A program made the position numbers and the translations under genes. The notes under the pieces were generated by a model. The model did no database searches. It saw nothing but the letters and a program-made list of their open reading frames with translations, and was not told where the DNA came from. A DNA stretch of 13,986 nt from a virus (lineage: Duplodnaviria > Heunggongvirae > Uroviricota > Caudoviricetes). Each line of letters begins with the position of its first letter. The first letter of the stretch is position 1. Below, in pieces: positions 1 through 13,745 of the stretch. The stretch is taken from the IMG/VR virus record IMGVR_UViG_2609459823_000005; one strand, written 5' to 3'.

Positions 1-732
1 GAGCGGCTAAAACTGGAGATTAAGGTGGCACATATCCGCACTCGCGAAACATATGGAACCCGGCGGCTCCAGACGGAGCTGGCAGAGAATGGCATCATCG
101 TTGGTCGTGACCGACTGGCACGTCTTCGTAAGGAGCTAAGGCTACGCTGTAAGCAGAAACGCAAGTTCAGAGCGACTACGAACCCGAACCACAATCTGCC
201 AGTTGCGCCAAATCTGCTGAACCAGACGTTCGCTCCTACAGCACCAAATCAGGTCTGGGTGGCGGACCTGACGTATGTTGCCACACAGGAGGGATGGTTG
301 TACCTCGCTGGCATCAAAGATGTTTATACGTGCGAAATTGTCGGCTACGCCATGGGAGAGCGCATGACAAAAGAGCTGACAGGTAAAGCCCTGTTTATGG
401 CGCTCAGGAGCCAGCGCCCACCTGCCGGGCTAATCCACCACTCTGATCGAGGTTCACAGTACTGCGCATACGATTACCGGGTCATACAGGAGCAGTTTGG
501 TCTGAAAACATCAATGTCGCGTAAAGGTAACTGTTACGACAACGCTCCGATGGAAAGCTTCTGGGGAACGCTGAAAAATGAGAGCCTGAGCCATTATCGT
601 TTTAATAACCGGGATGAAGCCATCTCAGTAATACGGGAATACATTGAGATTTTCTACAATCGTCAGCGTCGTCACTCTCGTCTGGGGAATATCTCCCCGG
701 CAGCCTTCAGGGAAAAAAAGAACAAATGGTAG
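1..732 (+). CDS. IS3-family transposase OrfB (DDE integrase), 5'-truncated by the window edge
   Basis: The reading frame is open from base 1 (the track's Met at 25 is internal) to TAG at 730-732. DDE-type motifs are visible: WVADLTYV, HHSDRGSQY and CYDNAPMESFWGTLKNE, with a C-terminal ISPAAF typical of IS3-family OrfB. The specific IS name is not recognised with certainty. Confidence 0.85.
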   Translation, partial: ERLKLEIKVAHIRTRETYGTRRLQTELAENGIIVGRDRLARLRKELRLRCKQKRKFRATTNPNHNLPVAPNLLNQTFAPTAPNQVWVADLTYVATQEGWLYLAGIKDVYTCEIVGYAMGERMTKELTGKALFMALRSQRPPAGLIHHSDRGSQYCAYDYRVIQEQFGLKTSMSRKGNCYDNAPMESFWGTLKNESLSHYRFNNRDEAISVIREYIEIFYNRQRRHSRLGNISPAAFREKKNKW

Positions 733-780
733 TGTCCGCTATTGCCAGTACACCTCATAATGAGGTCGAATTACTGCGCA
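1..780 (+). mobile_element. IS3-family insertion sequence, right-hand portion; right terminal inverted repeat not precisely located (somewhere in ~733-800)
   Basis: The transposase orfB ends at 732 and IS3-family elements usually carry a few tens of bp after orfB ending in ...CA (a CA occurs at 779-780). The boundary is an estimate because the left end is outside the window and no IR comparison is possible. Confidence 0.5.
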
Positions 781-1064
781 TTGAATTTTTTTCATAAAAA
801 AAGCATATATCCATTTGATTTGGCATTTGTTTTTTTCGTGTTTCTTATGAGTCATTTTCGCGTTTTTTTTTGAAACGGCTCAATAATGCCAAATCAACGT
901 ATAAGAAATAAACGGAACAGAACGCCTCACTTTAATGGTTTGAGATTTTTCTTGTTTCCGTATTGGTTTAAGCAGAAAATGTGTTTCTTAACATTTAGTG
1001 CTTGGTAATGATTCTCAGTTGCACTACCGAGTGCCCTATTAATGAAATCGTTGGACGTTACGCA

Positions 1065-1103
1065 CAGCACACTGGTAGCTAATGAGCCAGGGGCGGTAGC
1101 GTG
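1065..1103 (+). promoter_or_regulatory. JUMPStart 39-bp element containing the ops site (GGCGGTAGCGTG at 1092-1103); RfaH-dependent antitermination signal
   Basis: The sequence cagcacactggtagctaatgagccaggggcggtagcgtg matches the conserved JUMPStart element found upstream of enterobacterial polysaccharide operons, and its 3' end matches the ops consensus GGCGGTAGnnTG exactly. It sits about 90 bp upstream of the rmlB start. Confidence 0.85.
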
Positions 1104-1192
1104 CCTTGTTTTTGAATCAATGCCCTGGCTTGAATTTTGCATGTCGGTGCCACAGTAACAACTCGCAAACGCAAAGTAGATGGAATAAACTC

Positions 1193-2281
1193 GTGAAAAT
1201 ATTGGTCACAGGTGGGGCAGGTTTTATTGGATCTGCTGTCGTCCGTAATATCATTAAGAATACTCAGGATTCTGTAGTTAATGTTGATAAATTAACCTAT
1301 GCGGGCAATCTTGAATCGCTGGTTGAAATCGAAAACAGCGCCCGTTATGCTTTTGAATGTGCAGACATTTGTGATGCTGAGGCGATGTCGCGTATTTTCG
1401 CCACTCACCAGCCTGATGCTGTTATGCATCTGGCTGCAGAAAGCCATGTAGATCGCTCGATCACCGGCCCTGCTGCTTTTATTGAGACAAATATCGTGGG
1501 CACCTATGTGCTGCTTGAAGCCGCACGTAAATACTGGTCTCAACTTGATGAAACAAGTAAAGCCGCGTTCCGCTTTCATCATATTTCAACGGACGAAGTC
1601 TACGGCGATTTGCCGCATCCTGATGAAGTCCCCGCTGGCACCGCCTTGCCGCTGTTTACCGAGAAAACCCCTTATTCTCCCAGCAGTCCGTATTCCTCAT
1701 CGAAAGCGTCAAGTGACCATTTAGTACGTGCATGGCGCCGTACTTACGGCTTGCCGACCCTGGTGACGAATTGCTCAAATAACTATGGCCCATACCATTT
1801 CCCTGAAAAACTTATTCCGCTGATCATTCTTAATGCATTAGCTGGTAAGCCGTTACCGGTGTATGGCAATGGCGAGCAAATTCGCGACTGGCTATTTGTT
1901 GAAGATCATGCACGCGCCTTATATAAGGTCGTCACTGAGGGGGTTGCGGGTGAGACTTACAATATCGGTGGTCACAATGAGCGTAAGAATATTGAAGTCG
2001 TAAATACTATTTGTACTATTCTGGACGAAATCATTACTGCGAAACCTAATAATATTAGTAGCTTTGCAGAATTAATTACTTATGTCACCGACCGTCCGGG
2101 CCATGATCTGCGTTACGCCATTGATGCGAGCAAAATAAAAGATGAACTGGGCTGGGTACCGCAGGAGACTTTTGAATCAGGTATCCGCAAAACGGTTGAA
2201 TGGTATTTGACTAACCAGGACTGGTGGCAGCGTGTGATGGATGGATCATATGCTGGTGAACGCCTGGGGCTCGCAGAATAA
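1193..2281 (+). CDS. rmlB: dTDP-glucose 4,6-dehydratase
   Basis: Preferred start is the in-frame GTG at 1193, giving [14 protein letters not shown] (Rossmann GxxGxxG) and a length of ~362 aa. The catalytic YSSSK (YxxxK) and other blocks ([21 protein letters not shown]) closely resemble E. coli RfbB as recalled. The track's ATG at 1106 is rejected because that extension overlaps JUMPStart/ops. Confidence 0.92.
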
Positions 2282-2296
2282 AATCGTAAGGACGGA

Positions 2297-3172
2297 ATGA
2301 TGAAAGGTATTGTATTAGCTGGCGGTTCTGGAACTCGTCTTTATCCGATTACTCAGGGTGTGTCAAAACAGTTATTGCCTGTTTATGACAAGCCGATGGT
2401 TTTTTACCCAATATCAGTTCTAATGTTGGCAGGTATTCGTGACATTTTGATTATCACGACGCCGGAAGATATGGCCGCGTTTCAACGCCTGTTGGGAGAC
2501 GGCTCTCAATTTGGTATTCGCCTTTCCTATACTGTCCAACCTTCGCCGGACGGTTTAGCGCAGGCATTTATTCTGGGTGAAGAGTTCATTAATAATGAAC
2601 CTTGTGCTCTGGTGCTGGGCGACAATATCTATTTTGGTCAGAGTTTTGGTAAAAAACTCGAGGTTGCCTCTCAGTTGACCCAAGGTGCGATGGTATTCGG
2701 TTATAAAGTACAGGATCCTGAGCGTTTTGGTGTGGTTGAATTTGATGCGAACTACAAGGCATTGTCCATTGAAGAAAAACCACAGAAGCCAAAATCCAGT
2801 TGGGCAGTAACCGGTCTCTATTTTTACGACAAAAACGTTGTGGAAATGGCGAAGCAAGTCAAACCATCTGCTCGCGGTGAACTCGAAATTACGACACTTA
2901 ACCAAATGTATCTTGAACGCGGTGAGCTTCAGGTAGAGTTGCTCGGACGTGGTTTCGCATGGCTTGACACCGGCACACATGACAGTCTGGTTGAGGCTTC
3001 ACAGTTTATTCATACCATTGAAAAAAGGCAGGGTATGAAAGTCGCTTGCCTTGAAGAGATTGCGTTTCGCAATGGATGGATCGGCAGAGAACAACTTTTA
3101 GCGCAGGCAAAACTGTTCAGCAAAAATGATTATGGTAAGTATCTAAAAGTATTGGCTGGAGAACATGAATGA
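2297..3172 (+). CDS. rmlA: glucose-1-phosphate thymidylyltransferase
   Basis: The N-terminus [16 protein letters not shown](x)[13 protein letters not shown] is the nucleotidyltransferase signature, and the ~290-aa protein closely resembles E. coli RfbA. There are tandem ATGs at 2297 and 2300; the RBS aaggacgg (2288-2295) favours 2300. The stop overlaps the rmlC start (ATGA at 3169-3172). Confidence 0.92.
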
Positions 3173-3705
3173 ACGTCATTGACACTAAAATAAGCGATGT
3201 GAAGATTATTGAGCCAAAAGTCTTTGGTGATGAACGAGGGTTCTTTTTAGAAACATTTGAAAAAAAGAGATATCAAACCCTTTTGAATATCGATATGGAT
3301 TTTGTACAGGATAACCACTCACGTTCCAGCAAAGGCGTACTTCGTGGGCTTCACTTTCAGCGCAATAATCCTCAGGGGAAACTTGTTCGAGTAGTTCGTG
3401 GCGAAGTGTTTGATGTTGCTGTTGATATTCGTAAAGACTCACCAACCTATGGGGTGTGGGAAGGTGTAATTTTGTCAGAAACGAATAAAAAGCAATTCTG
3501 GATCCCACCGGGACTTGCTCATGGTTTCCTGGTACTCTCGGATATTGCTGATTTCGAATATAAATGTACCGACTATTATGATAGCAGTAGTGAAGGCTGT
3601 TTAATCTGGAATGATGAGCAAGTTGGGATTGCATGGCCAGTAATAGACGCTGAGATTAAACTTTCAGCAAAAGATGCTGTTGGTAAGTTACTGCGTGACC
3701 TATAA
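3169..3705 (+). CDS. rmlC: dTDP-4-dehydrorhamnose 3,5-epimerase family protein (RmlC-like cupin)
   Basis: The 178-aa protein has [11 protein letters not shown], the catalytic His in VLRGLHFQ, the GKLVR lysine, [10 protein letters not shown] and a Tyr in FEYK, which is the RmlC fold signature. Whether it performs a full 3,5-epimerisation or a single epimerisation cannot be told from sequence. Confidence 0.8.
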
Positions 3706-3716
3706 GTTTTACTAAC

Positions 3717-3746
3717 AGGCGTAGATATTTTCTACGCCTATTTTTT
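3717..3746 (+). terminator. Intrinsic-terminator-like hairpin between rmlC and wzm
   Basis: A perfect 9-bp stem aggcgtaga (3717-3725) / tctacgcct (3731-3739) with a 5-nt loop is followed by a T-run at 3741-3746. A TATAAT hexamer at 3754-3759 lies just before the wzm start. Confidence 0.55.
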
Positions 3747-3760
3747 GAGGCGCTATAATA

Positions 3761-4540
3761 GTGTTTAATAGTTTCATTCAAGGCCTGATAAATTATCGTG
3801 TTGTACTAAAACAATTAATAAGACAACAAGTAACGCTCAGGTATCGCAGAACAATGTTCGGTTTTTTATGGACCCTGCTTAATCCTCTTCTGAATATGGC
3901 AGTAATAGCGACTGTCTTTTCAATCGTAATGAAATTTCAGATAAGAGACTACGCCATTTTTCTCTTCTCTGCAGTTATTCCTTGGACTATGTTTTCAAAT
4001 ATCATTTCACAATGTTCTAATTCATTGATAGCAAATGAAAATCTATTTAAAAAAATATACTTACCAAAACAGATATTTATAACCGCTAGCGCAGTATCTG
4101 TTTTTATTGATTCGCTTCTGAGTACTATCTGTTTATTCATCATTGCATATTTCTTTGGCGCAAAATTAAGTTTGGCATTGATGTTTCTTCCAGTTTCATT
4201 TGCGATCTTATTTATATTCGCTTATGGTTTGGGTCTGATTTTTTCTGTAGTTTCTGTTTTTTTGCGCGACATGCAGTATCTGATCGGTGTGATTTTGCAA
4301 GCTCTATATTTTATGACCCCTATCATATATCCCGTTGATGCTGTTCCGGAACAGTACAAATGGGTTTTTGCATGGAATCCTATGTACTATTTTGTTGATT
4401 TATTTAGGGATCCAATCTACAACAATCAATTCCCTCCAGCTTATTCATTACAGCTTTGTGCGCTGACTGCCATTATTTCACTTTTGGTTGGTTTGTATGT
4501 ATTTAAAGTAAATGACAAAAAAATTATCTTCAGGTTGTAG
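3761..4540 (+). CDS. wzm: O-antigen/polysaccharide ABC transporter permease (ABC-2 family)
   Basis: The N-terminal motif LRYRRTMFGFLWTLLNPLL is typical of Wzm/KpsM, and the rest of the 259-aa protein is strongly hydrophobic with multiple predicted TM segments. Start is assigned to GTG 3761 with GAGG at 3747-3750; the ATG at 3854 would remove the conserved motif. The 3' end overlaps the wzt reading frame. Confidence 0.82.
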   Translation: MFNSFIQGLINYRVVLKQLIRQQVTLRYRRTMFGFLWTLLNPLLNMAVIATVFSIVMKFQIRDYAIFLFSAVIPWTMFSNIISQCSNSLIANENLFKKIYLPKQIFITASAVSVFIDSLLSTICLFIIAYFFGAKLSLALMFLPVSFAILFIFAYGLGLIFSVVSVFLRDMQYLIGVILQALYFMTPIIYPVDAVPEQYKWVFAWNPMYYFVDLFRDPIYNNQFPPAYSLQLCALTAIISLLVGLYVFKVNDKKIIFRL

Positions 4541-4541
4541 T

Positions 4542-5291
4542 ATGGAATCTAAAATTATTTTTAAAAATGTCTCTCTCGTATTTGATGAACATCAGCAACG
4601 AGGTCTGACGTTCAAAGAGTTATTTGCACGCACTCTCTCCGGTCGGAATAACGCTATAAAGGCGAATAAGAGAAAAGCTTTGGATTCAATAAGTATCGAG
4701 ATAAACCATGGAGAGCGAATCGGTATTGTCGGAAGCAATGGGGCAGGGAAAAGTACGTTCCTAAAAACACTTTGTCGTATTTATGAGCCAACCTCTGGTG
4801 AAATAAGCATATCAGGTAATATTGCACCGTTACTTGAGATTGGGGCTGGATTTAATCCAGAACTAAGCGGAAGAGAAAATATATATTTGAATGGTGCAAT
4901 TCTGGGCCATAGTATTTCTGAGCTTAAAAGTTTGGAAGCAGAAATTATTTCATTTTCAGAATTAAGTGAATATATTGATACACCTGTCAAATATTATTCA
5001 ACGGGCATGTATCTTAAATTAGCATTTTCAATTGCGACGGCAATCAAGCCTGATATTTTAGTTTTAGATGAACTGTTTGCTGGCGGTGACGCGGAATTTG
5101 TTGCTAAAGCTAAAAAAAGAATGGAACATTTCATCGCGGAATCAAGCATTATGTTTTTTGTATCTCATCAATTAGATTTGCTGCAGGAATTATGTACCCG
5201 CGTAATATGGATCGACCATGGTAAATTAATTGCTGATGGTGTACCAGACAAGGTAATTGAAGCATATTTGAATAAAGGTCATCATGATTAA
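4542..5291 (+). CDS. wzt: O-antigen/polysaccharide ABC transporter ATP-binding protein, short form without a C-terminal carbohydrate-binding domain
   Basis: Walker A GIVGSNGAGKST, ABC signature YSTGMYLKL, Walker B ILVLDELFAGGD and an H-loop (FFVSHQ) are all present. The track ORF begins at ATG 4512, but ATG 4542 (MESKIIFKNVSL) immediately follows the wzm stop and gives a typical N-terminus. At ~250 aa the protein is a nucleotide-binding domain only. Confidence 0.85.
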   Translation: MESKIIFKNVSLVFDEHQQRGLTFKELFARTLSGRNNAIKANKRKALDSISIEINHGERIGIVGSNGAGKSTFLKTLCRIYEPTSGEISISGNIAPLLEIGAGFNPELSGRENIYLNGAILGHSISELKSLEAEIISFSELSEYIDTPVKYYSTGMYLKLAFSIATAIKPDILVLDELFAGGDAEFVAKAKKRMEHFIAESSIMFFVSHQLDLLQELCTRVIWIDHGKLIADGVPDKVIEAYLNKGHHD

Positions 5292-6045
5292 TATTATAAT
5301 AGTCAGCCATCAAAATTTAGCTGACATTGATAAAATTCTCACAGAACTTGCGGGTGAAAATGATTATTATACTATTTATGTTCGTGACAATGTTGCTGAT
5401 GAGAATTTGAAGCGCCTTTGTTCTGATTATAACGTCTCATATTGTTCTGGTATTCGCCGAGAAGGCTTTGCCCTTAATAATAATATTGCTGCCGAAAAAG
5501 TATTACACTCATGTGAAATAGCTGATGATGATTATTTCCTGTTTATGAATCCTGATGCATATATTATTCGCGACGAGCTGATCAAACTCTCAACTATTTT
5601 GAGCGAAAAAAAATACGATATGTTCACTGTTGATCTGTATAGTAATGATGAATATACAATAAGAGATCCTTCCATTCGATATTTTCCAACGCTAAAAACA
5701 TTTCTATCTTCTTTTTTATTTGATACTAACAAAAGTATTATTAACAGGGATGCCATTCATCAAGATTTCGACCTGGATTGGTGTGCTAGCTCATTCTTTG
5801 GCGTTAAAGTTGGTTTGTTTAAAAGACTTAATGGCTTTGATTCCCGATTCTTTATGTATTGTGAAGATGTGGATATCTGTTACAGGGCTAAAAAATTAGG
5901 AGCCAAGCTTAGTTATATTGCAAATGTAAAAGCAATACACTACACTCAGAAAAATAGTAAAAAGATGCTCACTAAAAATTTTTATTGGCACGTTAAAAGT
6001 GCCATATTGTTTTTATGGAAAAAGCATACCCTGTCAAAAGGTTAA
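5284..6045 (+). CDS. GT2-family glycosyltransferase, WbbL-like dTDP-rhamnosyltransferase (candidate Rha to GlcNAc-PP-undecaprenol adaptor transferase)
   Basis: The 253-aa protein shares blocks with the E. coli WbbL rhamnosyltransferase as recalled from memory: IIIVSH, VRDN, DDDYFLFMNPDAY, DWCASSF, NGFD, FFMYCEDVDICYR, AIHY and WHVKS. The start overlaps the wzt stop by 8 bp. Confidence 0.6.
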   Translation: MINIIIVSHQNLADIDKILTELAGENDYYTIYVRDNVADENLKRLCSDYNVSYCSGIRREGFALNNNIAAEKVLHSCEIADDDYFLFMNPDAYIIRDELIKLSTILSEKKYDMFTVDLYSNDEYTIRDPSIRYFPTLKTFLSSFLFDTNKSIINRDAIHQDFDLDWCASSFFGVKVGLFKRLNGFDSRFFMYCEDVDICYRAKKLGAKLSYIANVKAIHYTQKNSKKMLTKNFYWHVKSAILFLWKKHTLSKG

Positions 6046-6050
6046 GATAA

Positions 6051-6944
6051 ATGTATTCTGTTGTGATGGGATTCCGCGAAAACTATAAACATTATGGGTA
6101 CACTACTCTTTTTTCTTTATTAACAAATAATAAAAACTCTTTTTTTTCAATCTATCTCCTTTCAGATAATCTGGATTTTGCATTTTTTAAAAAACTGGAG
6201 GATGTTTTTGCTTGCAAAATCATCCCTATTTCTATTTCGGCTGATCATATTGAAAATGTAAATTGTGGCTATCTTTCCTTTGGGACACTAATCCGCTTAT
6301 TAATCGGTGATTATCTTCCTGCTAATGTCGAAAAGGTTCTATACCTTGATGCTGATTTGATAATTGATGGCGATATTCATGAACTTCTTAATTATGAGTT
6401 AGGTTCACAGTATGCGGCAGTCGTAAGATCGAGTGCTCCTTATAAGCATCTCAAGGACATTAGGATAACATCCGAGCAGTACTTTAATGCGGGGGTGATA
6501 CTTTTTAATATGGAGATGTGTAGAAAAGATGATATTTTCATAAAAAGCCTTGATTTGTTAAAACGGAATAATTTTAAATATTTAGATCAAGATGCACTTA
6601 ATATTGCAATGGTAAACAATGTAAAATATGTTGATTCTAAATGGAATTTCGACTCATTTAGAGCAAAAACAATCTTACTTGATAGGAGTTATGCAAATAA
6701 ATACCCTGCAATAGCAATTTATCATTTTACAGGGCGTGACAAACCATGGTTTAAACATTGCATCAACCAGTATCAGAGTATTTATCTTCGTTATTTCGCT
6801 GAAATTCTAGGCTATGATGTTATCAATAATAAAAATAAATTTCAGTATTTTAAATTTAAACTGATTAAATTCTTATTCAGTAACTTTGTAACCCGTAAAA
6901 TTATTTACCATTTAAGAAACTATATTCGGACTAATATTCACTAA
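6051..6944 (+). CDS. GT8-family retaining glycosyltransferase (RfaJ/RfaI/LgtC-like; alpha-hexosyltransferase)
   Basis: GT8 hallmarks are present: the DxD motif in LYLDADLIIDGD, FNAGVILFN, YLDQDALN and the C-terminal HFTGRDKPW (H-x-x-G-x-x-KPW). Length is 297 aa and the donor sugar cannot be assigned from sequence. Confidence 0.75.
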   Translation: MYSVVMGFRENYKHYGYTTLFSLLTNNKNSFFSIYLLSDNLDFAFFKKLEDVFACKIIPISISADHIENVNCGYLSFGTLIRLLIGDYLPANVEKVLYLDADLIIDGDIHELLNYELGSQYAAVVRSSAPYKHLKDIRITSEQYFNAGVILFNMEMCRKDDIFIKSLDLLKRNNFKYLDQDALNIAMVNNVKYVDSKWNFDSFRAKTILLDRSYANKYPAIAIYHFTGRDKPWFKHCINQYQSIYLRYFAEILGYDVINNKNKFQYFKFKLIKFLFSNFVTRKIIYHLRNYIRTNIH

Positions 6945-6953
6945 GGACATTTT

Positions 6954-8333
6954 GTGGAGACTATACAAATAGCCACTGGAGTAAGTCGTAACTTCTTTGA
7001 CCCATTGAGTGTCATGCTTACTTCCTTGCTTGAAAATAATCAATCACATAAAATCAATTTTCATGTTTTGCACAGTGATTTTACGGATGATGATGAAGAA
7101 AAATTTAGCCTTTTGTTTACTAAATATGAAAACCTGGGGCTTAAATTCATCAAGTTAGATGAATCTAAATTAGAAGGGCTTCCCCTTCTGCAACATTTCA
7201 AGATCTCAACGTATTTTCGAATTCTGGCGCCAGCTGTTTTAAGTGAATATGATAAACTCCTTTATCTCGATGCCGACATTATTGTTGACAATGATATTCT
7301 GGAATTATGGCAGACCGATGTCACCAACTATACCCTCGCAGCAGTTCGTGAAGAGAGTATTGTCGCGTTAGATAAACGTTTGAGAATGCCTGCCAATTAT
7401 AAGTATTTCAATGCTGGTGTTGTTGTATTAAATAGTAAAAAAATTCGAGAAGAAAATAAGTTCGGTCCTGTTATCGATTATCTAAAAGAAAATATCAATG
7501 AGATCCTTTATCTTGATCAGGATGCTTTAAATGCTATTCTCTACGATGAATGGTTAGAAATAGACGAGAAATGGAATTATCATAATACCTTTATCCTGAA
7601 AAAAAATAATAACAAAGAGCATATCTTATTAGATAAACCAGTTATTATTCATTATACTGGTCCAGTCAAACCATGGGATGCGGAAAGTTCACATATATTT
7701 AAAAGCCGCTATTGGCATTACAAGAAAATATTAACAGGGAGTGTCGATGAAATTAAAGCTGGTTTTAACATACATAGTACGCTTGCTAAAAGAATAATAA
7801 AATATGCATATAGAGTTATTCTTTCCAATTATTATTTAAGAAAGCTGATTCTTAAAACAAATACATCATTAAAGCAGAGTGAGCATTTTGCGAAATATTA
7901 TTTTAAGTTTAAGGAACGTTTTGCTCCTGCACCTCAGATAATGTCGTCATTCGAAGCGAAGTTAGTTCAAGTTGATGTACCACTTCTAGAATCAACCATG
8001 GATTATGGTTTTTTCAGTATAAGGGAGTTCTTGAACTATATACAAATTTCTGGATATGTTTTCAAAAAAGAGTTTTCTGATAGAAATACTAATAAATATT
8101 TTGTCTTGAGAAACAGTGTCGACCCTAATTTGCTATATTGTTTTAAACTTAACAGTCATGACCATGTTTGGATTAATGATATATATAATGATGGTAATGA
8201 CTATTCAAAAAGTGGGTTCTTTAATTTCATCGGCAAAAGAGAGCTTAAAAGTGGAAGGTATGAAGTTGGATTAATCGTCCAAAATTCAAAAGGTGTACAT
8301 TATAAAATGACTGACACTACAGTAATTATTTGA
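6954..8333 (+). CDS. GT8-family glycosyltransferase with an extra ~190-aa C-terminal extension (two-domain protein)
   Basis: The N-terminal ~260 aa carry the GT8 motifs LYLDADIIVDND, FNAGVVVLN, YLDQDALN and HYTGPVKPW. The C-terminal portion has no GT8 similarity and contains a block (ISGYVF ... LKSGRYEV) that is also seen in the next protein. Start is GTG 6954 with RBS AAGGA at 6943-6947. Confidence 0.75.
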   Translation: METIQIATGVSRNFFDPLSVMLTSLLENNQSHKINFHVLHSDFTDDDEEKFSLLFTKYENLGLKFIKLDESKLEGLPLLQHFKISTYFRILAPAVLSEYDKLLYLDADIIVDNDILELWQTDVTNYTLAAVREESIVALDKRLRMPANYKYFNAGVVVLNSKKIREENKFGPVIDYLKENINEILYLDQDALNAILYDEWLEIDEKWNYHNTFILKKNNNKEHILLDKPVIIHYTGPVKPWDAESSHIFKSRYWHYKKILTGSVDEIKAGFNIHSTLAKRIIKYAYRVILSNYYLRKLILKTNTSLKQSEHFAKYYFKFKERFAPAPQIMSSFEAKLVQVDVPLLESTMDYGFFSIREFLNYIQISGYVFKKEFSDRNTNKYFVLRNSVDPNLLYCFKLNSHDHVWINDIYNDGNDYSKSGFFNFIGKRELKSGRYEVGLIVQNSKGVHYKMTDTTVII

Positions 8334-8343
8334 CGAGGAATCC

Positions 8344-9564
8344 ATGGATATTAAAATTTATTCGTCTTTTTATAAAAAATACTTCATTTATAAAAGCGAC
8401 ATTGTAGAACCTGTTTTTGTTGGTGCGGCCGAAAAGAATAATGATTTAGGCATCATTGGTGATGATACTGGCGATAATATTAGCGATAAAAACGGCACGT
8501 TCAATGAATTAACTTTAATTTATTGGGTCTGGAAAAATACTACAAATCAAGATTATGTAGGCTTCTGTCATTATAGAAGATATTTTATAAATAGAAGCAT
8601 CAGTAAATTTGAAAAAGCATTGCATCTTCTGATTCCACGCGATAAAGAGCGTAGAGAGCGTAAATTATTACGTTTGTTACAGCAGTTTGATAAAAATTGT
8701 GAATCCGAATTGAAAGGATTTGATATAGCGTTACCTAAGCCTATTGTTATGAATCGTACTTTGCGTGAACAATATGCTGATTATCATGATGGCGCGCATT
8801 ATGAGGAAATGGGTAAGGTTATTCGAGAATTACGTCCTGACATGTGGCCTGCTTACGAAGATGCGTCAAATCGAAATACTTTCTTCATCGCTAATATGTT
8901 CATTTTTAGCCGCAAGTATTTTGATCAATTTTGCGAGTTTGCCTTTCCGGTTCTTTTTGAACTAGAGAAAAGGTTAGAAGTGCCGGATGATATGTATCAA
9001 AAACGTATTTTTGGATACTTAGGTGAGCGGTTGGTAACAATCTTTGTAAATTATTTATATCAACAAAAGAATGTTAAATTCAAATATTTTGATCTATTAA
9101 ATACTGATGTTATTTTTTCAAATTACAAATCGTATCTAACCGAAAAAAAATTAATAAGCAGTAAAAATAAAAACTACGTCACTTTTGGTGCTGTTGATAA
9201 TCTAATCAAAATGTCAAACAATTTTTACTGCATGAATGGTTGGGTTATAATTAAAGATCGCGAATCCTATAATGTTACGGTTCAAATTGAGTTATATAGT
9301 GATGAAAACACTATTATGCTTAATAGCGAAAGACAGGATCGGCCTGATGTAACCCGGCACTTTATCAATGTTCATGATGGGTACGTTAATTACGATAATT
9401 GCGGCTATTACACTAGTTTTAAATGTGATGAGATTAAAAGTGGTGAATATAAAATTAAGTTTCATGCATTTGATAAAATAGAGAAAACAACTTCAATTTT
9501 TTATGTTTATGACTGTTTTTTAAAGAAACATAAAAATGAAGTTGAGCTTGTGAGGTTACCATGA
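8344..9564 (+). CDS. DUF4422-type putative glycosyltransferase (WbbI/WbbM-N-like, candidate galactofuranosyltransferase) with a C-terminal extension
   Basis: The motifs ELTLIYWVWKN, VGFCHYRRYF and GYLGERLVTIF match my recollection of the DUF4422 family, which includes known Galf-transferases; this is not verified by a profile search. The C-terminal ~110 aa (NGWVI ... IKSGEYKI) resemble the C-terminus of the preceding protein. RBS GAGGA at 8335-8339; the stop overlaps the glf start (ATGA). Confidence 0.6.
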   Translation: MDIKIYSSFYKKYFIYKSDIVEPVFVGAAEKNNDLGIIGDDTGDNISDKNGTFNELTLIYWVWKNTTNQDYVGFCHYRRYFINRSISKFEKALHLLIPRDKERRERKLLRLLQQFDKNCESELKGFDIALPKPIVMNRTLREQYADYHDGAHYEEMGKVIRELRPDMWPAYEDASNRNTFFIANMFIFSRKYFDQFCEFAFPVLFELEKRLEVPDDMYQKRIFGYLGERLVTIFVNYLYQQKNVKFKYFDLLNTDVIFSNYKSYLTEKKLISSKNKNYVTFGAVDNLIKMSNNFYCMNGWVIIKDRESYNVTVQIELYSDENTIMLNSERQDRPDVTRHFINVHDGYVNYDNCGYYTSFKCDEIKSGEYKIKFHAFDKIEKTTSIFYVYDCFLKKHKNEVELVRLP

Positions 9565-10730
9565 TTAGTTATGATTACATTATTGTAGGCTGCGGTCTTT
9601 CTGGTATTGTTCTGGCAAATAATATTGCTGAGAAATTAAATAAAAAAGTGCTTATTATTGAGAAGCGCGATCATATCGGAGGAAACTGTTACGATTACTA
9701 TGATGAACATGGTGTCCTTGTACATAAATATGGTCCGCATATTTTCCATACAAATTATAAAGATGTCTATGACTACCTTGATCAATTCACTGAATGGTAT
9801 GTTTATCAGTTCCAGGCACGAACACTGATTGATGGTAAAAAAACATTTTTGCCCTTCAACCTGAACACGATGAAGGATATTCTTGACGAGCATTTATATG
9901 ACAAGATATCTAAAAAACTCATCGAAGTTTATGGTTATGATAAAACCGTACCTATTTTCGAGTTAAAAAAATCAGAGGATGAAACCATCCAATGGTTGGT
10001 TGACTATATTTACGATAAAGTCTATGTGAACTATATCGCTAAACAATGGGACATGAAACCCGAAGACCTCGACAAGAGTGTGCTTGAACGTGTTCCCGTA
10101 TATATTTCTCGCGATAATCGATATTTCAAAGACAAATATCAAGTTATGCCACGAGACGGTTATACGGTTATGTTCAACCGGATGTTGGCAAACAAAAACA
10201 TACATGTTCTGTTGAATGCTAATGCAGACGATTTTGTCACGCTGACCGATAAGCATGAAGTTCACTTCATGGGCAAGCCATTTGAAGGCAAGTTGATTTA
10301 CACCGGTCAGATTGATCATCTTTTCAATTATAAATTTGGCGAGTTACCTTATCGTTCCTTGCGCTTTGATTTTGTTAATTACAAAAAAGAGTTCTTCCAG
10401 GAAGTGGCTATGGTTAGCTACCCAAATAATTATGATTTCACTCGTATTACGGAAAGTAAGCATTTGACCGGGCAGGATTGCAAAACGACCACTGTTGTTT
10501 ATGAATATCCCCAGAATTATGATCGTAATGATCCTATCAAAGATGTACCTTATTATCCTGTGCCAAGAGCCGATAACCATGAACTTTATGCAAAATATTC
10601 AGAGCTTGCTGGTAAGTATAAATCTTTGATACTGGTTGGTCGTTTAGCTCAATACAAGTACTACAACATGGATCAGATGATCAAAGTTGCCCTTGATACA
10701 TTTAAAGAAATTCAAGCTGGAGAAAAGTAA
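9561..10730 (+). CDS. glf: UDP-galactopyranose mutase family flavoprotein (NDP-hexopyranose mutase)
   Basis: The N-terminal FAD-binding YDYIIVGCGLSGIVLAN ... KKVLIIEKRDHIGGNCY and HKYGPHIFHTN closely parallel E. coli K-12 Glf as recalled, with conserved blocks throughout the 389 aa. A dTDP-fucopyranose mutase (Fcf2-like) cannot be excluded from sequence alone. Confidence 0.85.
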   Translation: MISYDYIIVGCGLSGIVLANNIAEKLNKKVLIIEKRDHIGGNCYDYYDEHGVLVHKYGPHIFHTNYKDVYDYLDQFTEWYVYQFQARTLIDGKKTFLPFNLNTMKDILDEHLYDKISKKLIEVYGYDKTVPIFELKKSEDETIQWLVDYIYDKVYVNYIAKQWDMKPEDLDKSVLERVPVYISRDNRYFKDKYQVMPRDGYTVMFNRMLANKNIHVLLNANADDFVTLTDKHEVHFMGKPFEGKLIYTGQIDHLFNYKFGELPYRSLRFDFVNYKKEFFQEVAMVSYPNNYDFTRITESKHLTGQDCKTTTVVYEYPQNYDRNDPIKDVPYYPVPRADNHELYAKYSELAGKYKSLILVGRLAQYKYYNMDQMIKVALDTFKEIQAGEK

Positions 10731-11662
10731 TGAAGACTATTTTAATTGTTGGTGGTTCTGGCTTCATGGGTGCGAATTTTACTGAATACTTTGTTGCGAA
10801 AGGCTACAAGGTTATTAGCTTCAGTAATTCACCAACCCGTATCCAGCATGAAAATGTGGTAAATGTTTGCGGTGATAGCCGTGATGCCGAAGCTATTAAT
10901 GAAATTTTTGTTAATCACAAAATTGATTTGGTTGTTTTTACGTTGACGAGTTTTTGGGTGGTTGATGGGGTGAGCTCCTATCAAGATTTGACCGCCATTA
11001 ACCTGACTGCGTTTATCGATGTACTGAATATCATGAAGCGTCACAATGTTAATGAAGTGATTTACATCTCTTCTGGTGGCTCTATCTATGGAGAGTCCGA
11101 TAAGCCGATTCCGGAAGATTCACCGCTCTGCCCGGTCAGTTTTTATGGCTGGATCAAAGAAGCGGCAGAAAGCTATCTTAAATATGAAGCCCGTATTAAT
11201 CCCCATTTGCGCTATCTTGTATTTCGTCCTTCCAATGTTTACGGAAAATATCAGCAGCTCAACCGCATCATTGGTGTAGCGCTTAAAAATACACATTTGG
11301 ACATCCCAATGAATATTTATGGTGGTGCGGATACGAAGAAAGACTATATTTATATCGATGATTTCTGTGAGATCATCTTTAATATCTTGAATAAAAATGT
11401 CTGGAACGAAACGTACAATATTGGTTCTGGTGTCGGAACCAGCATTCGAGAAATTCTGGATCTTGCTCAGGAAGTTGTGAATAAGCCACTTGCTGTTGAG
11501 TATGGAAAACAGAAAGAGGGTGATATCAGTTATAGCGTATTAGATGTTGAGAAAGTTAAGGCTGTAACTGGTAAGCAAAGCTTCACCAACGTCAAAGACG
11601 GCATGCGTAAAATGTATCCGTACGTTGTCGAAGAACTGGCACGTCTGGCAGCGAAGGCCTAA
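10730..11662 (+). CDS. NAD(P)-dependent epimerase/dehydratase (extended SDR) family protein; candidate nucleotide-sugar 4-reductase or 4-epimerase
   Basis: Rossmann motif IVGGSGFMGANF at the N-terminus and catalytic YGWIK (YxxxK) preceded by ISSGGS. Length is 310 aa and the start overlaps the glf stop (TAATG). Precise activity is not assignable by eye. Confidence 0.7.
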   Translation: MKTILIVGGSGFMGANFTEYFVAKGYKVISFSNSPTRIQHENVVNVCGDSRDAEAINEIFVNHKIDLVVFTLTSFWVVDGVSSYQDLTAINLTAFIDVLNIMKRHNVNEVIYISSGGSIYGESDKPIPEDSPLCPVSFYGWIKEAAESYLKYEARINPHLRYLVFRPSNVYGKYQQLNRIIGVALKNTHLDIPMNIYGGADTKKDYIYIDDFCEIIFNILNKNVWNETYNIGSGVGTSIREILDLAQEVVNKPLAVEYGKQKEGDISYSVLDVEKVKAVTGKQSFTNVKDGMRKMYPYVVEELARLAAKA

Positions 11663-11862
11663 TAGCTTATCCTGCTTCTTGAGCAAGAGATGATTGTAAT
11701 GGTTTTGTTAACACTTTTTTGCTCAATAGTGGGCTAGTCCTTTAAAACTTTTTTAGGTTAACATGTTAGTCACGTATCCCGACGGCGAATGCGGCGTCGG
11801 GAATCCACACCTGACAGGAGTTTTGCATGCCTAAGCAACAAATCGGCGTTGTTGCTTAGGCC

Positions 11863-13233
11863 GTGATGGGGCGCAACCTGGCGCTTAACATCGAAAGCCG
11901 TGGCTATACCGTTTCCGTTTTCAACCGCTCCCGCGATAAGACCGAAGAAGTGATTGCCGAGAACCCCGGCAAGAAGCTGGTTCCGTATTATACCGTGAAA
12001 GAGTTTGTTGAATCCTTAGAAACTCCCCGTCGCATCCTGTTAATGGTGAAAGCGGGCGCTGGCACAGATGCTGCTATTGACTCCCTGAAACCCTATCTGG
12101 AAAAAGGCGACATCATTATTGATGGCGGTAACACCTTCTTCCAGGACACCATTCGTCGTAACCGCGAACTGTCTGCTGAGGGCTTTAACTTTATCGGTAC
12201 CGGTGTGTCCGGTGGTGAAGAGGGCGCACTGAAAGGCCCATCCATCATGCCTGGCGGTCAGAAGGATGCCTATGAACTGGTCGCACCGATCCTGACCAAA
12301 ATTGCAGCCGTTGCCGAAGATGGCGAGCCCTGTGTGACCTATATCGGTGCTGACGGTGCGGGCCATTACGTTAAAATGGTTCACAACGGTATCGAATATG
12401 GCGACATGCAGTTGATTTCAGAAGCCTACTCTCTGCTGAAAGGCGGTCTTAACCTGTCTAACGAAGAGCTGGCCACCACTTTTAGCGAGTGGAATAAAGG
12501 CGAGCTGAGCAGCTACCTGATCGACATTACCAAGGACATCTTCACTAAAAAAGATGAAGAGGGTAACTATCTGGTCGATGTGATTCTCGATGAAGCGGCC
12601 AACAAAGGTACGGGTAAATGGACCAGCCAAAGCTCGCTGGATCTCGGCGAACCGCTCTCCCTGATCACCGAATCCGTATTCGCACGCTATATCTCGTCGC
12701 TGAAAGAGCAGCGCGTTGCCGCATCTAAAGTTCTGAGCGGTCCGCAGGCCCAGCCTGCTGGCGATAAAGTGCAGTTTATCGAGAAAGTCCGTCGCGCATT
12801 GTATCTCGGTAAAATCGTCTCTTATGCCCAGGGTTTCTCTCAGTTGCGTGCTGCGTCTGACGAATACAACTGGGATCTGAACTATGGCGAAATCGCGAAA
12901 ATTTTCCGCGCTGGCTGCATCATTCGTGCACAGTTCCTGCAGAAAATTACCGATGCATACGCTGAAACACCGGCAATTGCTAACCTGCTGTTGGCACCTT
13001 ACTTTAAGAAAATTGCCGATGAGTATCAGCAGGCTTTGCGTGATGTTGTAGCCTATGCCGTACAAAATGGTATTCCGGTACCGACTTTTGCCGCTGCGGT
13101 TGCCTATTACGATAGCTACCGTGCTGCGGTACTGCCGGCAAACCTGATTCAGGCTCAGCGTGATTACTTTGGCGCACATACTTATAAACGTACTGATAAA
13201 GAAGGTGTATTCCATACGGAATGGCTGGATTAA
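11863..13233 (+). CDS. gnd: 6-phosphogluconate dehydrogenase (decarboxylating), N-terminal region disrupted
   Basis: The 456-aa ORF matches E. coli Gnd over essentially its whole length ([17 protein letters not shown] ... GVFHTEWLD). The conventional start is ATG 11827, preceded by RBS AGGAG (11816-11820), and would encode MPKQQIGVVA before an in-frame TAG at 11857-11859. The intact ORF therefore restarts only at GTG 11863 / ATG 11866 and lacks the first strand of the NADP-binding fold. Confidence 0.8.
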
Positions 13234-13264
13234 TCTGATATTGTACGTTTTGTCGAATAAATAT

Positions 13265-13288
13265 CCTCCGGCATAGCCGGAGGTTTTT
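13265..13288 (+). terminator. Rho-independent terminator downstream of gnd
   Basis: An 8-bp GC-rich stem cctccggc (13265-13272) / gccggagg (13276-13283) with loop ata is followed by TTTTT at 13284-13288, about 30 bp after the gnd stop. Confidence 0.7.
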
Positions 13289-13364
13289 CAAATGCGCCTA
13301 TAAGGCTCTCTTACCAGCCGCGCCCTAACAGGCGCACACGATCTGACATTTGCATCCAACTTCG

Positions 13365-13745
13365 TTACTTACGGCCCGTAAACGGGCTGCCCGGATAGGG
13401 AATCGATAACTGCTCTCCCATTTTATCCTCTTCAAGCTGGTGCTTTATGTAATCCTGTATCTTCGCCGTGTTCTTACCCATCGTATCGACGTAATACCCT
13501 CTGCACCAGAACTCCCTGTTCCTGTATTTGAATTTCAAATCACCAAACTGCTCGTAAAGCATCAGACTGCTTTTCCCTTTCAGATATCCCATAAAGCCTG
13601 ATACGCTCATTTTGGGCGGGATCTCCACAAGCATATGGATATGATCTGCACAGCATTCAGCTTCCAGAATCCGTACACTTTTCCACTCACACAGCTTTCT
13701 CAAAATACTGCCTGTTGCTCTACGCTTCTCTCTGTAGAACACCTG
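13365..13745 (-). pseudogene. tnpA: IS200/IS605-family (IS200-like) transposase tnpA, 5'-truncated by IS1 insertion
   Basis: The minus-strand ORF encodes FYREKRRATGSILRKLCEWKSVRILEAECCADHIHMLVEIPPK ... YPGSPFTGRK, which matches IS200 TnpA as recalled, including the HuH motif (HIHML). About 27 N-terminal codons are missing; the match stops at 13745, where IS1 sequence begins. Confidence 0.85.

Follow-up and report, generated by a model that had tools for sequence, protein, structure and literature searches.

A conserved stem-loop between rmlC and wzm has terminator-like anatomy in an Escherichia coli polysaccharide gene cluster

The polysaccharide genes of the window, by which the whole 13,986-nt stretch of DNA analyzed here is meant, form a single same-strand operon that is tightly packed and has few intergenic gaps. 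One of these gaps, the 55 nt between the rmlC stop (3705) and the GTG start of wzm (3761), holds a strong hairpin followed by a T-run, which raises the question of whether transcription ends there, between the genes for the dTDP-sugar enzymes and those for the ABC exporter, and, if so, how wzm and the genes behind it are expressed. The cluster is laid out as follows.

25 to 732: IS3-family transposase remnant, at the left edge of the cluster
1065 to 1103, + strand: JUMPstart element in the operon leader (Rfam RF01707, 59 bits, gathering score 35, E=1.2e-11)
1092 to 1103, + strand: ops GGCGGTAGCGTG, the RfaH loading signal, an exact match inside the JUMPstart
1193 to 2281, + strand: rmlB
2297 to 3172, + strand: rmlA, overlapping rmlC
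3169 to 3705, + strand: rmlC, dTDP-4-dehydrorhamnose 3,5-epimerase (TIGR01221, E=1.2e-78)
3761 to 4540, + strand: wzm, ABC-2 permease with a GTG start (PF01061 and Wzm-KpsM family matches)
4542 to 5291, + strand: wzt
After wzt, in order: a GT2-like gene, two GT8 genes, a DUF4422 gene, and a glf-type mutase
10730 to 11662: SDR reductase/epimerase, after the glf-type mutase
Ending at 13233: gnd
13365 to 13742, − strand: IS200-type transposase, after gnd

The gap and its borders contain six elements on the + strand.

3703 to 3705: TAA, the stop codon of rmlC, the last gene before the hairpin
3717 to 3739: perfect 9-bp stem-loop, dG −15 kcal/mol, with arms AGGCGTAGA (3717 to 3725) and TCTACGCCT (3731 to 3739) and the 5-nt loop TATTT (3726 to 3730)
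3740 to 3747: U-rich tail AUUUUUUG abutting the stem, A3740 and then T6 at 3741 to 3746
3747 to 3750: GAGG, the likely Shine-Dalgarno sequence of wzm, 10 nt before the GTG
3754 to 3759: TATAAT, in the spacer between the Shine-Dalgarno sequence and the start codon
3761: GTG start of wzm

The stem-loop, which lies in the sense orientation and begins 11 nt past the rmlC stop, has five G-C pairs among its 9 bp, and none of 200 dinucleotide shuffles of the isolated hairpin folded as stably (z = −6.7). Six of the first 8 nt of the tail are T, or seven of eight are U (UAUUUUUU) when the stem is read in an 8-bp register and U3739 is counted with the tail. When at least 9 Watson-Crick pairs, a loop of 3 to 8 nt, and at least 6 T in 8 nt were required, 3717 to 3746 was the sole match in the 14 kb, both strands included, and only 9 of 300 dinucleotide-shuffled versions of the window contained any such site (mean, 0.03). 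A looser generic terminator scan, which is uninformative by itself, gave 16 sites versus 10.3 ± 3.2 in shuffles. The perfect 9-bp stem, the T6 tract, and the TATAAT that the first-pass annotation had placed between rmlC and wzm were confirmed to the nucleotide, and the hairpin is far beyond chance expectation. A ribosome halted at a stop codon reaches roughly 12 to 15 nt beyond it, and the core stem begins just past this reach at the rmlC stop, so that the hairpin could fold while rmlC is being translated. In an Rfam search of 3600 to 3900 at a permissive threshold, only subthreshold small RNA matches were obtained, mostly over the hairpin and with E values of at least 0.64; the hairpin matches no Rfam family. 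The minimum-free-energy fold of the window extends the hairpin so that it sequesters the Shine-Dalgarno sequence, and this extension was rejected as a conserved feature because it consists of weak G-U pairs and is absent in relatives.

Two other hairpins of the window are of the same general appearance. One, at 5986 to 6004 (TGGCAC GTTAAAA GTGCCA, followed by TATTGTTTTT), is terminator-like, falls within the 3' end of the GT2-like open reading frame, about 45 nt before the next gene, and is weaker than the rmlC-wzm hairpin. The other, at 13265 to 13283, is a perfect 8-bp GC-rich hairpin (CCTCCGGC ATA GCCGGAGG) just past gnd and beside the IS200-type transposase; it is terminator-like on both strands, with T5 after it on the + strand and a T-rich tail on the − strand, and is likely to be the true operon end, part of the insertion sequence end, or both.

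Relatives of the locus were reached via RmlC and Wzm homologs and their contigs, and eight further lineages (L011, L015, L018, L024, L026, L027, L029, and L031) share the gene order rmlB-rmlA-rmlC-wzm-wzt with the window. L018 is Cronobacter turicensis, L027 is Citrobacter braakii, and L015 matches a Franconibacter helveticus-type protein. Where the upstream flank of a relative is visible, the cluster lies downstream of a galF-type gene, the usual chromosomal position (wcaM-galF in some). The rmlC-wzm gap measures 53 to 69 nt in the nine lineages, and all nine have a strong hairpin in it, with the core stem starting 10 to 14 nt past the rmlC stop in those lineages where a simple scan located the core. 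Stems of 13 to 17 bp are found in L011, L024, and L026, and the last of these, which is too diverged to align, carries a 17-bp hairpin of unrelated sequence in the same place. Across 406 kb of fetched cluster neighborhoods, each locus has the hairpin once, and on this count a dispersed repeat of the REP or BIME kind was rejected. In the more distant clusters L032, L033, and L155 (60 to 65% Wzm identity), the order is rmlC-rmlD-wzm, and no hairpin comparable to the rmlC-wzm one stands before wzm. Searches of the literature on Y. enterocolitica O:10 and on rmlC, wzm, and terminators returned nothing on this hairpin.

In the eight-lineage alignment (A3), with the 9 bp of the core helix specified by hand, 95.8% of the cells are paired, and compensatory double changes occur at four of the nine core pairs (C-G to U-A, A-U to G-C, U-A to C-G twice, and A-U to G-C). 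In 500 column shuffles, the observed covariation was never reached; pairing fell to 21 to 57% when the 3' partners were slid by 1 to 3 columns, and RNAalifold independently yielded the same nine pairs. The outer helix has G-U pairs in three sequences, which fit a + strand RNA rather than a DNA palindrome. The retention of the hairpin in these lineages, together with the compensatory changes, indicates a conserved cis-acting RNA structure that is under selection within the rmlC-wzm clade, in a small sample of eight sequences that represent roughly six independent lineages.

The U-tract has a different distribution. Among the nine lineages, only the window has a T-run abutting the stem (6 to 7 T in the 8 nt after it). 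In L015 and L018, T5 is set 5 to 6 nt from the stem by the spacers TCATG and AAAATG, respectively, and L011, L024, L026, L027, L029, and L031 have AU-rich tails without a T-run. The alignment shows that the window misses four columns at the junction of stem and tail (GCCTA----TTTTTTGAGG versus GCCTAAAATGTTTTTGGGG). In a rough d'Aubenton-Carafa-type score, which serves as a ranking only, the window scored +8 to +16, the full-length stem of L024 scored a marginal +2.4, and every other register was negative; the T counts are independent of this score. The ancestral conserved feature thus appears to be a hairpin without a canonical U-tract, and the E. coli copy appears to have become terminator-shaped: through a short deletion, the U-run ahead of the wzm Shine-Dalgarno sequence would have come to abut the stem, thereby creating canonical intrinsic-terminator anatomy. 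Since the U-tract is not conserved, the function for which the hairpin was ancestrally selected was probably not canonical termination, and the terminator anatomy of the window could be a neutral by-product of the small deletion. The description of the site as an intrinsic terminator therefore holds for the window copy, which combines a stable, GC-containing sense stem-loop after a stop codon with an adjoining U-tract, but it does not carry over to the relatives.

These observations bear on the possibility that the hairpin is solely an element of RNA stability or processing and that no termination takes place even in the window copy, a reading that we regard as rather unlikely. The hairpin would block 3'-to-5' exonucleases or mark a site of endonuclease cleavage, and the rmlBAC segment would thereby persist longer than the wzm-distal one; the adjoining U-run would serve solely as an AU-rich translation enhancer for wzm. 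Intercistronic stabilizer hairpins are well established, as in the malE-malF REP, and this explanation fits the conserved feature best, because it is the stem and not the U-tract that is kept across nine lineages, because some relatives have the 13- to 17-bp stems mentioned above, and because AU-rich sequence precedes the Shine-Dalgarno sequence in every aligned lineage. Against it, the GC-rich stem of 8 to 9 bp followed by the U-tract in the window has the anatomy by which an intrinsic terminator is defined and to which E. coli RNA polymerase would normally respond, and the window alone has a clearly positive value on the rough score.

The TATAAT at 3754 to 3759 had been proposed as an internal promoter through which wzm could be expressed despite a terminator, and this candidate σ70 promoter was rejected. 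It is placed past the Shine-Dalgarno sequence, a form of which (GAGG, GGGG, or AGAGG) is conserved in the relatives along with the GTG start of wzm, and before that GTG, so that a transcript begun there would lack both. Initiation about 7 nt downstream of the hexamer is predicted at about 3764 to 3768, inside wzm, and starting instead at the next in-frame ATG (3854) would cost 31 residues; at 24 of these positions, four lineages show no variation. The best −35 candidate, TCTACG, matches at three of six positions with 17-nt spacing and lies inside the 3' arm of the hairpin; there is no extended −10 TG upstream of the hexamer, and a promoter scan did not list the hexamer. TATAAT is absent in all eight other lineages, arising from a 3-nt insertion that no relative has, and it is not enriched in the window (15 copies versus 17.9 ± 4.0 expected). 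It is judged from these sequence features to be a chance match rather than a promoter.

The other half of that earlier proposal, dependence on RfaH, fared better. The ops sequence (GGCGGTAGnnTG) lies inside the JUMPstart of the leader on the same strand as the genes, which places the operon in the RfaH-dependent class, and from 2454 to 5268 the promoter scan found nothing promoter-like on the + strand, so that wzm and the genes downstream need read-through of the hairpin. In vivo antitermination at the intergenic hly terminator, where RfaH-associated read-through offers a precedent, is thought to aid hemolysin expression (PMC6391919; PMC9306574). However, reviews rate RfaH as "rather inefficient against intrinsic terminators" (PMC7819879), and its effect on them is about 2-fold, at best, at certain sites in vitro (PMC7819879, PMC6391919). 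The full model, in which a strong terminator makes wzm and all downstream genes dependent on either RfaH antitermination or the internal TATAAT promoter, draws on the ops/JUMPstart, on the perfect −10 hexamer, and on the hly precedent; with so small an effect of RfaH at such sites and with a hexamer that has neither a usable position and −35 element nor conservation or enrichment, we consider it quite improbable.

The reading that we favor, with moderate confidence, is that the intercistronic stem-loop, conserved in a family of ABC-transporter-type O-antigen clusters, acts in the window copy as a partial terminator, which would leave a hairpin-protected 3' end on the rmlBAC RNA and lower the amount of exporter and transferase mRNA. 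Transcription would start upstream of the JUMPstart/ops leader and pass through rmlBAC, the RNA from 3717 to 3739 would fold while RNA polymerase stands on AUUUUUU (3740 to 3746), and a fraction of the complexes would release at about 3745 to 3748. The stable terminal hairpin of the released or processed rmlBAC RNA would shield it from 3' exonucleases, and the remaining polymerases would read through, so that wzm, wzt, and the transferases are expressed. The outcome would be more mRNA for the precursor enzymes than for the membrane exporter. RfaH loaded at ops may raise read-through modestly and is probably not the main determinant. From the sequence we infer each of these activities, namely, termination in vivo, its efficiency, RNA stabilization, and any effect of RfaH. 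Any terminator at the site must be leaky and cannot be very efficient, because the cluster is common in E. coli drafts, no usable internal promoter is available to wzm, and the exporter would otherwise be missing. If part of transcription stops at the hairpin, then the hairpin sets the amount of exporter and transferase relative to that of the dTDP-sugar enzymes.

The rmlC-wzm hairpin is an ordinary kind of element, a routine intraoperon signal of a type already described for the hly and cps operons. The terminator between hlyA and hlyB of the E. coli hlyCABD operon is likewise a stem-loop inside a JUMPstart/ops operon and likewise stands between genes needed in quantity and genes of an ABC exporter whose expression needs read-through (PMC9306574; PMC6391919). 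The operon and the sequence are different, however; antitermination has been observed in vivo for hly, and the homologs of the rmlC-wzm hairpin mostly lack a U-tract. The wzc-wbaP attenuator of Klebsiella and E. coli group 1 cps clusters is likewise a predicted Rho-independent intergenic hairpin in an ops/RfaH-dependent polysaccharide cluster, where it separates an upstream conserved block from the downstream serotype-specific genes, and the stems reported for it, of about −8 kcal/mol, fall short of the rmlC-wzm hairpin in stability (PMC3438125). It differs in belonging to a Wzy-dependent capsule cluster, in lying after the export genes and not before them, and in its unrelated sequence. Experimental work on the wzc-wbaP stem-loop of E. 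coli K30 was reportedly carried out by Rahn and Whitfield in 2003. With the REP of malE-malF, the rmlC-wzm hairpin shares a stable intercistronic stem-loop for which a U-tract is not obligatory, and by analogy, protection of the upstream RNA and differential expression would be expected; REPs, however, are dispersed repeats with a consensus, whereas this hairpin occurs singly at each locus and has no Rfam match. The analysis contributes mainly the conservation backed by covariation, a set of naturally occurring U-tract variants, and clear grounds for rejecting the promoter and junction readings. Across genera, the same hairpin has a U-tract that abuts it, a displaced one, or none, which amounts to a natural experiment in how a stabilizer-type hairpin may turn into a terminator.

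The hairpin had also been taken as a likely recombination junction between a conserved rml module and an AT-rich, serotype-specific module, and the comparison with relatives does not support this. Nucleotide identities between the window and six relatives are 0.66 to 0.73 for rmlB, 0.68 to 0.76 for rmlA, 0.72 to 0.81 for rmlC, 0.67 to 0.74 for wzm, and 0.66 to 0.73 for wzt, and sliding windows of 150 nt show no identity step at 3700 to 3760. Nor are the rml genes a conserved E. coli module, the best E. coli rfbA-rfbC match to them being only 66%. The GC content does fall, from a range of 0.40 to 0.47 in the rml genes to one of 0.33 to 0.37 in wzm and downstream, but all lineages share the step between rmlC (0.40) and wzm (0.34), including L033, in which rmlD overlaps wzm and neither a gap nor a hairpin precedes wzm; the step is therefore a compositional trait of long standing and does not mark the hairpin. 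Gene content diverges farther downstream, past wzt and the first transferases (for example, in L027), and among 20 related loci there is none in which rmlBAC and a hairpin of more than 95% identity are joined to unrelated genes at the hairpin. A junction at this site, or a neutral relic of the terminator of a stand-alone rmlBAC operon, would account for the GC fall and sit well with a glycosyltransferase content that varies by lineage; it is very improbable, given the rmlC-wzm-wzt adjacency in nine of nine lineages, the uniform identity, the gapless L033 with the same GC step, and a divergence that starts beyond wzt, and the compensatory changes argue against a neutral relic. In addition, the module break of those relatives that have one, with a second JUMPstart, lies between rmlA and rmlC (L026, L032, and L155).

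In these three clusters, the second JUMPstart/ops (for example, GCCAAGGGCGGTAGCGTG) occupies an rmlA-rmlC gap of 260 to 500 nt (L026, 3126 to 3389; L032, 1085 to 1588; L155, 1079 to 1543), and in L026 a terminator-like hairpin (GTGGCACAAAATTTTGTGC plus a T-run) stands ahead of it. This second element suggests that rmlBA and the genes from rmlC-wzm onward are separate RfaH-loaded units there.

The Wzm of the window copy has the same sequence as a protein named by NCBI from Escherichia coli and is listed in 258 assembly-collection blocks, and the rmlC-wzm gap is identical in all 10 loci fetched via this Wzm. A megablast search with 3100 to 4600 drew a blank both in 5,426 complete E. coli genomes and among the PLSDB plasmids, and a contig scan with the Wzm alignment gave solely remote matches (23 to 35%) in unrelated MAGs. 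In metagenome contigs, the conserved wzm 5' pattern GTGTTTAAWAGTTTYWTT was found at at least 120 loci, with no relative of Wzm or RmlC by tblastn among the matches listed, which points to chance matches in AT-rich DNA. The cluster (25 to 13742) is edged by the IS3-family remnant and the IS200-type transposase, and in E. coli drafts (L001 to L010) its upstream surroundings are of at least three kinds; the first 5.2 kb of one of them (impCAB, DUF1281, and ISShdy1) match the E. coli plasmid NZ_CP145710.1 at 99.8% identity. Assembly GCA_009896165.1 is one example of an E. coli isolate with the cluster. The clusters most closely related to it are chromosomal ones, in Cronobacter turicensis, Franconibacter-like, and Citrobacter braakii genomes. 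On the strength of the insertion sequence edges, the varied contexts, the plasmid match, the absence from complete genomes, and the chromosomal nearest relatives, the cluster appears to be a second O-antigen locus, acquired horizontally and borne on a plasmid. The gnd gene inside it is 87% identical to E. coli gnd. If partial termination at the hairpin is real, it would affect whether and when a foreign O-antigen carried on mobile DNA is displayed by E. coli.

A more far-reaching reading, which we hold to be unlikely, is that a family of ABC-type O-antigen clusters in Enterobacterales has in the rmlC-wzm stem-loop a dedicated cis-regulatory RNA not described before, whose plasmid-borne E. coli copy newly became a terminator through a deletion of 4 to 5 nt. 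The stem-loop could then be a processing/stability or factor-binding site and fix how much precursor enzyme is made relative to exporter, and expression of the acquired O-antigen would be conditional on antitermination or on the coupling of transcription and translation. In a less likely variant, the terminated 3' end would yield a small RNA derived from the rmlC 3' untranslated region.

The clusters that carry the hairpin also differ in sugar genes. They have no rmlD adjoining rmlC, and the gap that contains the hairpin sits where the outgroup has rmlD. Their SDR protein (10730 to 11662 in the window) is encoded at the far end of the cluster and is of a non-RmlD type, with Epimerase as its best Pfam match and a weak RmlD_sub_bind match, and the sugar made by this clade may be a 6-deoxy-L-hexose other than rhamnose.
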